This document shows, one piece after another, positions 55,730 to 55,882 of a stretch of 64,000 bases of DNA (position 1 is the stretch's first letter; each line of letters opens with the position of its first letter). Position numbers and translations under genes: made by a program. Source of the DNA: Okamejei kenojei. Lineage: Eukaryota. The stretch spans positions 34,286,001 to 34,350,000 of the forward strand of contig CM069160.1 in assembly GCA_035221665.1 (NCBI GenBank), in the 5' to 3' direction. The notes under the pieces are model-generated. The model saw only the letters and a list, made by a program, of their open reading frames with translations, was not told where the DNA came from and made no database searches.

Positions 55730-55882
55730 TCTCCGTCACCCTGGATGCAGTGGAAACAGCGGGTCCGCGGCTCGAGGTGTCTGAGGAACAGGGTGAGGCT
55801 GACCTGGACCCTGAGGATTCTCCCTGACACCGGGAAGAGGCTTATAGACTGGCCGTGTGTGCTGGGATCGGAAAGATTCACA
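55730..55882 (+). pseudogene. Truncated, frameshifted B30.2 (PRY) exon fragment, copy C
   Basis: (V)SVTLDAVETAGPRLEVSEE / VRLTWTLRILPDTGKRLIDWPCVLGSERFT, matching the PRY pattern VTLD..TA...L..S....V......LPD...RF....CVLG.EGF. Confidence 0.82.

Follow-up and report, generated by a model that had tools for sequence, protein, structure and literature searches.

In the zebrafish finTRIM cluster, the B30.2 domain is encoded on one exon, frameshifted copies and genes lacking a B30.2 domain are common, and B30.2 exons have been shuffled between the finTRIM and NLR families, as described in the finTRIM report (PMC2657112). Cross-group conversion among zebrafish NLR-B30.2 genes is stated in a preprint (bioRxiv 10.1101/027151). 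Butyrophilins have been reported in cartilaginous fishes (PMC12841164), and background on TRIM and BTN domain shuffling is given in two further articles (PMC3137616, PMC11788884).

Here we analyzed a fragment of a B30.2 exon in a 64,000-nt stretch of the Okamejei kenojei genome (the whole of which is called the window), a cluster of genes of the skate BTN1A1-like subfamily. The fragment shares a phase-1 V-S-V-T-L-D start and 37-41 of 50 residues with the B30.2 exon of batoid TRIM39-like or zinc-binding protein A33-like genes (P0001-P0007), but unlike that exon it covers just 53 of 177 positions, is frameshifted, lacks upstream TRIM exons, and lies inverted beside a BTN gene. To the B30.2 exon of skate BTN1A1-like genes (P0009, P0014-P0018, P0025) it is identical at 34-38 of 50 residues, but it is located on the strand opposite the BTN exons, with no preceding heptad exons and no SPRY. 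Compared with finTRIM pseudogenes, the skate scrap is inverted and is carried by a recent three-copy segmental duplication; compared with the finTRIM/NLR exchange, batoid B30.2 trees likewise ignore host gene type, the partners in batoids being TRIM and butyrophilin. We consider the fragment to be a dead, ordinary, unprocessed B30.2 pseudo-exon, decaying neutrally in a birth-and-death immune cluster (probability about 0.85).

The B30.2 fragment and its borders

The fragment and the features that adjoin it are as follows, with the basis of each assignment in brackets.

54972-55290, no strand assigned: GC-rich and CpG-rich BTN upstream region with two opposed CAG/GTGAGT donors, at 55217 on the + strand and at 55283 on the - strand (homology to the linker of model P0009).
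55293-55560, + strand: multicopy piece, probably the middle of the same B30.2 last intron (contigs; 55293-55422 shown to be multicopy).
55650-55729, + strand: 3' end of the last intron with pyrimidine tract and phase-1 acceptor (start of homology, deep contigs).
55730-55882, + strand: PRY pseudo-exon (profile match, tblastn, frameshift-aware alignment, acceptor).
55790-55798, + strand: donor-like AGG/GTGAG with its GT at 55793, which would close a 63-nt exon (lies beneath the family's x-V-R codons).
55883-56524, - strand: CA-rich repeat (55883-55909) and 3' end of a LINE, truncating the exon (six related stretches in the window; ORF 55993-56511).

A profile was built from 26 batoid and shark B30.2 domains and used to score 3068 six-frame pieces of the window. 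The fragment matches profile positions 1-53 of 177, the 5' 30% of the batoid B30.2 terminal exon, and its two halves gave i-E values of 3.3e-11 and 0.016. Both PRY peptides that the earlier note had read in different frames after an acceptor are present: VSVTLDAVETAGPRLEVSEE reads from 55729 and VRLTWTLRILPDTGKRLIDWPCVLGSERFT finishes at 55882. The 3' half matches Pfam PRY with an E-value of 6.2e-05 (profile 20-49 of 49) at 23 bits, which falls below the cut-off of 27.5 bits because the domain is halved. The frameshift-tolerant PRY search proposed in that note returned a significant match: tblastn connects the two frames (E 2e-12), and a frameshift-aware alignment, for which 32 PRY starts drawn from 37 proteins were used, spans 55729 to 55882 with a score of 170 (maximum of 35 in 40 shuffles). 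Among 12 candidates from a protein search with the fragment, 7 match, all of them skate or ray TRIM39/A33-like (best E 5.7e-10), and a search of solved structures gave weak matches to the right family (TRIM11, E 0.011; BTN2A2, E 1.5). The Pfam PRY, tblastn, protein and frameshift-aware matches confirm that this is the PRY start of a B30.2 domain, and the broader description as a scrambled TRIM/BTN relic is borne out by the PRY homology, the acceptor and the frameshift.

The acceptor was rightly called strong, with pyrimidines at 17 of the 20 positions ahead of CAG. It is of phase 1 and stands directly ahead of the first V, and homology starts at 55729/55730; since B30.2 is encoded on one exon and the homology begins at the acceptor, the fragment is the start of a B30.2 exon. 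The SPRY half was absent from the window (best other i-E among the 3068 pieces, 0.19), and in the copy of the locus called A below the interval between the PRY piece and the transmembrane exon has no gap and contains no SPRY; from these two results we conclude that the SPRY half is really missing. What remains at the locus, in opposite orientation to the BTN gene, is the acceptor of a batoid B30.2 terminal exon and the exon's first 51-53 codons. It had been described as antisense to that gene, and the opposite orientation stands; its position, however, is 1.4 kb upstream of the signal-peptide exon and outside the coding span.

Two indels interrupt the fragment: a 3-nt insertion at about 55747, which paralog contigs do not have, and a net 5-nt deletion at about 55789, by which one residue was lost and one codon was reduced to one base. 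No open reading frame runs through the fragment, with one frameshift in the copy at 55730-55882 (copy C) and three in copy A. In both of these copies the exon is cut off by the CA repeat and LINE end at the identical point. We take the truncating LINE (to 56524) to be CR1-like; it had no Pfam match.

Four of seven listed sequencing runs, none of them recorded as RNA, were compared over 54100-55950; their contigs cover introns and repeats, as genomic DNA would. Among the 15 joints listed (of 47), none connects 55217 with 55730, which has no bearing on expression. High-depth contigs cover 55650-55729 in 4/4 runs, and one contig (55663-55747) crosses the acceptor. In 4/4 runs one deep contig begins at 55293, with 55216-55277 at low depth, contig depth being no measure of copy number. 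We infer that 55293 is the junction of the inverted block and that 55293-55882 is a single block from a B30.2 gene; the letters of the 55293-55560 piece presumably resemble ray last introns. Protein searches for gene models reading into this upstream piece gave a single chance match to a repeat protein (33%) and 0/56 candidates, and a metagenome scan for relatives with introns yielded just 5 loci from 194 stretches, at 43-48% identity.

The three-copy module and its butyrophilin genes

By self-comparison of the window, the fragment lies in a module with three copies: A at about 860-7000, B at about 14700-25500 (inverted) and C at about 55000-60200. The features of the other copies and of the BTN genes are:

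2172-2320, + strand: PRY pseudo-exon in copy A (shares the insertion, the deletion and the cut-off with copy C and has two further 2-nt deletions).
24130-24846, - strand: upstream piece of copy B (still present, carrying an insertion at about 24270-24615; from 24130 on, exon and LINE are missing).
27554-32937, + strand: BTN copy B, a stop-free frame of 280 codons (exons for signal, IgV, IgC, transmembrane segment and one heptad).
51886-52235, - strand: IgV exon of BTN copy C (350 nt; two additional T shift the frame).
54231-54288, - strand: signal-peptide exon of BTN copy C (protein homology).
57587-57712, - strand: orphan BTN transmembrane exon, with 120 nt of downstream intron (38/42 residues identical to P0010).

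The module copies differ at 2-6% of sites, and those of B and C each sit at the 5' end of a BTN1A1-like gene. The fragment spread into A, B and C with the segmental duplication; in A it then acquired further lesions, and from B it was deleted. The piece noted earlier at 2172-2316 is indeed there (2172-2320), though it carries three frameshifts, not one. Its loss from copy B was correctly noted: B exits the alignment at 24130, just ahead of the pyrimidine tract, and because B retains the upstream piece up to that point the exon loss in B is secondary.

Identity of the window's IgV exon to butyrophilin-like proteins is 81-89% for Amblyraja, Leucoraja and Rhinoraja and 55-74% for other rays and sharks (30 matches among 429 candidates). 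BTN copy B is the only open BTN frame in the window, and it is the copy without the PRY exon. A second heptad exon or a B30.2 exon for it was not found in the window, in which a 500-N gap occupies 34250-34749; BTN copy B is either tail-less or has its end inside this gap. BTN copy C is broken, and no IgC exon was found in the window after its IgV exon. The intron following this IgV exon contains an endogenous retrovirus in pieces (44141-51799), with Gag_p30 at 46011-46418 (E 5e-16), an MLV-type integrase end at 48868-49182 (E 5e-10) and, at about 44141-44799 and 51232-51799, two stretches resembling an LTR pair. Positions 27239-27428 are probably a 5' untranslated exon of BTN copy B and show homology to the P0009 linker; of this exon copy C retains only the donor (54420-54425).

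The intron homology of the orphan transmembrane exon to the gene of copy B stops after 120 nt; a continuation into the copy B intron was considered and rejected (score 18, shuffle mean 17.4). In copy B, two Tc1-type transposon copies (15260-16901 and 18229-19873, 94% identical) flank the orphan exon. On its far side in copy C is a unit at 57946-59050 in which a 37-bp tandem repeat precedes a CpG-rich stretch resembling a promoter; the unit is duplicated within the module (4473-5400, 5769-6950, 14667-15110, 59320-60184). The BTN upstream region also contains a GC-rich 34-bp tandem repeat, with about 15 copies in A (1007-1530), about 5 in B (25031-25211) and 1-2 in C (55134-55200).

Donor gene and route into place

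Read along the BTN strand, the window has the orphan transmembrane exon (57712-57587) with 120 nt of intron, then repeats, the inverted intron-plus-PRY block, the GC-rich region, the signal exon and IgV. In the Rhinoraja model P0009, a BTN gene whose last exon is a full B30.2 exon precedes a homolog of the GC-rich region, after which comes a signal exon; this linker is homologous to the GC-rich region of copy B (E 9e-08) and to 27277-27429 (E 5e-19). Given the order in P0009, the ancestral BTN genes were probably in tandem. If the fragment is dead, we lean, by somewhat better than even odds, toward a local inversion plus deletion of the last exon of the upstream tandem BTN. Skate BTN genes would at the start have stood in tandem, the last intron and B30.2 exon of the upstream neighbor would then have been inverted locally and mostly deleted, and the outcome would be a transmembrane exon on the BTN strand, a PRY start on the other strand, and the GC-rich 5' region of the next BTN adjoining. 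Local inversion with deletion reaches the present order in few steps, and the orphan transmembrane exon may be what is left of the gene from which this B30.2 exon disappeared. When the fragment was examined as a BTN remnant, no transmembrane or heptad exon was found upstream on the PRY strand and no heptad exon anywhere in the module; since the nearby transmembrane exon is on the other strand, a BTN remnant fits only with inversion. Counting against the BTN route, the best match in the frameshift-aware alignment is a TRIM (P0002, 41/53 identities, versus 39/53 for the best BTN rows).

A weak look-alike of the far end of the B30.2 exon (PWEGDQWLRI) occurs in copy B at about 18219-18190 (- strand, the PRY strand of that copy), near the orphan exon. 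Its score of 53 was reached by 0/200 shuffles, and its window-wide i-E of 0.46 is not significant. The look-alike is missing from A and C, the last residues of the family do not follow it, the 23-nt stretch that completes its ten residues is found in copy B only, and an atlas search with the copy B ORF carrying it gave no usable match.

The main alternative to the local inversion, which we hold as possible and distinctly short of even odds, is an equally dead fragment from a TRIM donor: either an ectopic copy of the last intron and the beginning of the last exon of a TRIM gene, or a TRIM gene in head-to-head position whose middle was deleted, bringing its last exon behind the 55217 donor. All 7 matches in the fragment's own search are TRIM-type, and a + strand donor lies upstream, as expected of a first exon; yet skate TRIM and BTN PRY starts match the fragment about equally (37-39 versus 34-38 of 50), and a BTN transmembrane exon sits 1.7 kb away. 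No RING, B-box or coiled-coil exon was found by tblastn with 6 full or partial TRIMs (P0001-P0005, P0007) in the window, which has gaps. A tree of 53 columns and 30 rows was built, PRY starts of <50 residues or without matched motifs being left out. A single starred branch among its 25 inner branches pairs the fragment with the Hypanus TRIM P0002 (99/91), but P0002 had been selected because it resembles the fragment, and the fragment's branch is long (0.7) and flagged as such. This placement was rejected as proof of a TRIM donor on account of selection bias and the long branch.

In a tree of 26 full B30.2 domains, skate TRIM and skate BTN form one group (97/84), and TRIM and BTN of the stingray lineage form another (95/88). 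Forcing the 5 TRIM rows together was rejected with a p-AU of 0.0006 (proteins P0001-P0036; TRIM rows chosen by likeness to the fragment). Batoid B30.2 domains thus group by lineage and not by gene type in this small and biased TRIM sample (5 rows), a pattern that suggests a continuing exchange of B30.2 exons between TRIM and BTN in batoids. As the two gene types have B30.2 lineages in common, a TRIM and a BTN donor are indistinguishable by tree; the comparison of TRIM with BTN B30.2 exons, suggested earlier as a way to find the donor, cannot decide, gene types being mixed within lineages. No publication on TRIM-BTN exchange in elasmobranchs was found by a literature search whose scope excluded most subscription journals.

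Splice signals, transcription and constraint

The donor-like AGG/GTGAG gives the 63-bp exon claimed for it (55730-55792), but it is weak as a donor. The motif is beneath conserved codons of the family, with V at its position in 27/31 PRY starts, which rules out a donor created by the frameshift. The window contains 48 instances of the pattern [ACG]GGTGAG, or 0.39 per kb per strand, and the distance from acceptor to GT would be 65 nt without the +3 and -5 indels, so that the in-frame 63 nt is a one-in-three accident. Judged from these codons and lengths, the 63-nt 'exon' is a by-product of the family's own x-V-R codons, and the splice signals of the fragment are probably inherited, not new. Differences between A and C amount to 5/135 sites in the PRY and 22/459 in the LINE (Fisher p 0.81; small counts), and over the whole piece 5/6 changes alter a residue. 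The fragment therefore appears to decay neutrally, with no constraint visible, and probably yields no protein.

A perfect + strand donor, 512 nt upstream of the acceptor, is present in 3/3 copies, and the acceptor is intact in A and C. The GC-rich part around this donor is more conserved than the rest (4/222 versus 43/889 differences, p 0.04), which low CpG-island mutation or selection on the BTN promoter explains without the fragment. Perfect CAG/GTGAGT occurs at 6 sites in the window, 5 in the module and one at 32607, the - strand site of copy A being altered. Facing CAG/GTGAGT donors 65 nt apart on opposite strands are found at 55212-55288, 1589-1655 and 24900-24975 (0-1 differences in about 90 nt), and such a pair may mark overlapping first exons.

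With these signals, the fragment could have been adopted as the second exon of a divergent transcript that starts in the BTN CpG island, runs from 55217 to 55730, perhaps ends at the 55792 donor, and is non-coding or, in C, encodes a 111-residue peptide. A and C both have an intact donor followed by an intact acceptor, and in C the frame of the ATG at 54980 is open across the virtual 55217-55730 joint in the PRY frame (111 residues). In A, however, neither upstream ATG is in frame; in B the corresponding ORF ends before the donor and the exon is gone; and the body of the exon drifts neutrally. A conserved coding frame over the joint was rejected, the frame being open in C alone, and we regard adoption as improbable.

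The earlier suggestion of a transcript sharing sequence with many B30.2 genes gained no support. A transcript on the + strand through the fragment would be sense, not antisense, to B30.2 mRNAs. It would take a BTN-strand transcript from further upstream, crossing the inverted piece, to give RNA antisense to many TRIM and BTN mRNAs (a source of endo-siRNA or piRNA), and that such antisense or small RNA pairs with the near-identical B30.2 exons of many skate TRIM and BTN mRNAs strikes us as very improbable. The orientation would permit it, and paralogs are close, with 13 differences in 88 nt in one contig and 4, 7, 9 and 24 contigs per run at 55841. Against this, the piece offers only about 150 nt at 85% likeness, would be intronic or upstream, and has been lost in B and is eroding in A. 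If antisense RNA were made, one locus would tune two immune gene families with a homogenized exon, and its loss beside the open BTN copy B would be regulatory.

That an error of assembly or sequencing created the frameshift, or the arrangement as a whole, is scarcely credible: the window has nine N gaps and long homopolymers, but A and C have both indels in common while differing at 4-6% of sites, and a contig of run X7, which may be the assembly's own source, spans 55727-55830 with no gap and one differing letter.

As a dead B30.2 pseudo-exon, the fragment gives a date and an orientation to rearrangements of a butyrophilin cluster in skate and alerts annotators to a stray PRY match. Of more interest than the fragment is the grouping of TRIM with BTN B30.2 domains, which connects a cytosolic E3-ligase family and a family of membrane ligands of gamma-delta T cells. 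If the exchange is true, B30.2 trees would be unusable for shark and ray BTN or TRIM orthology, and both families may sense the same ligands.
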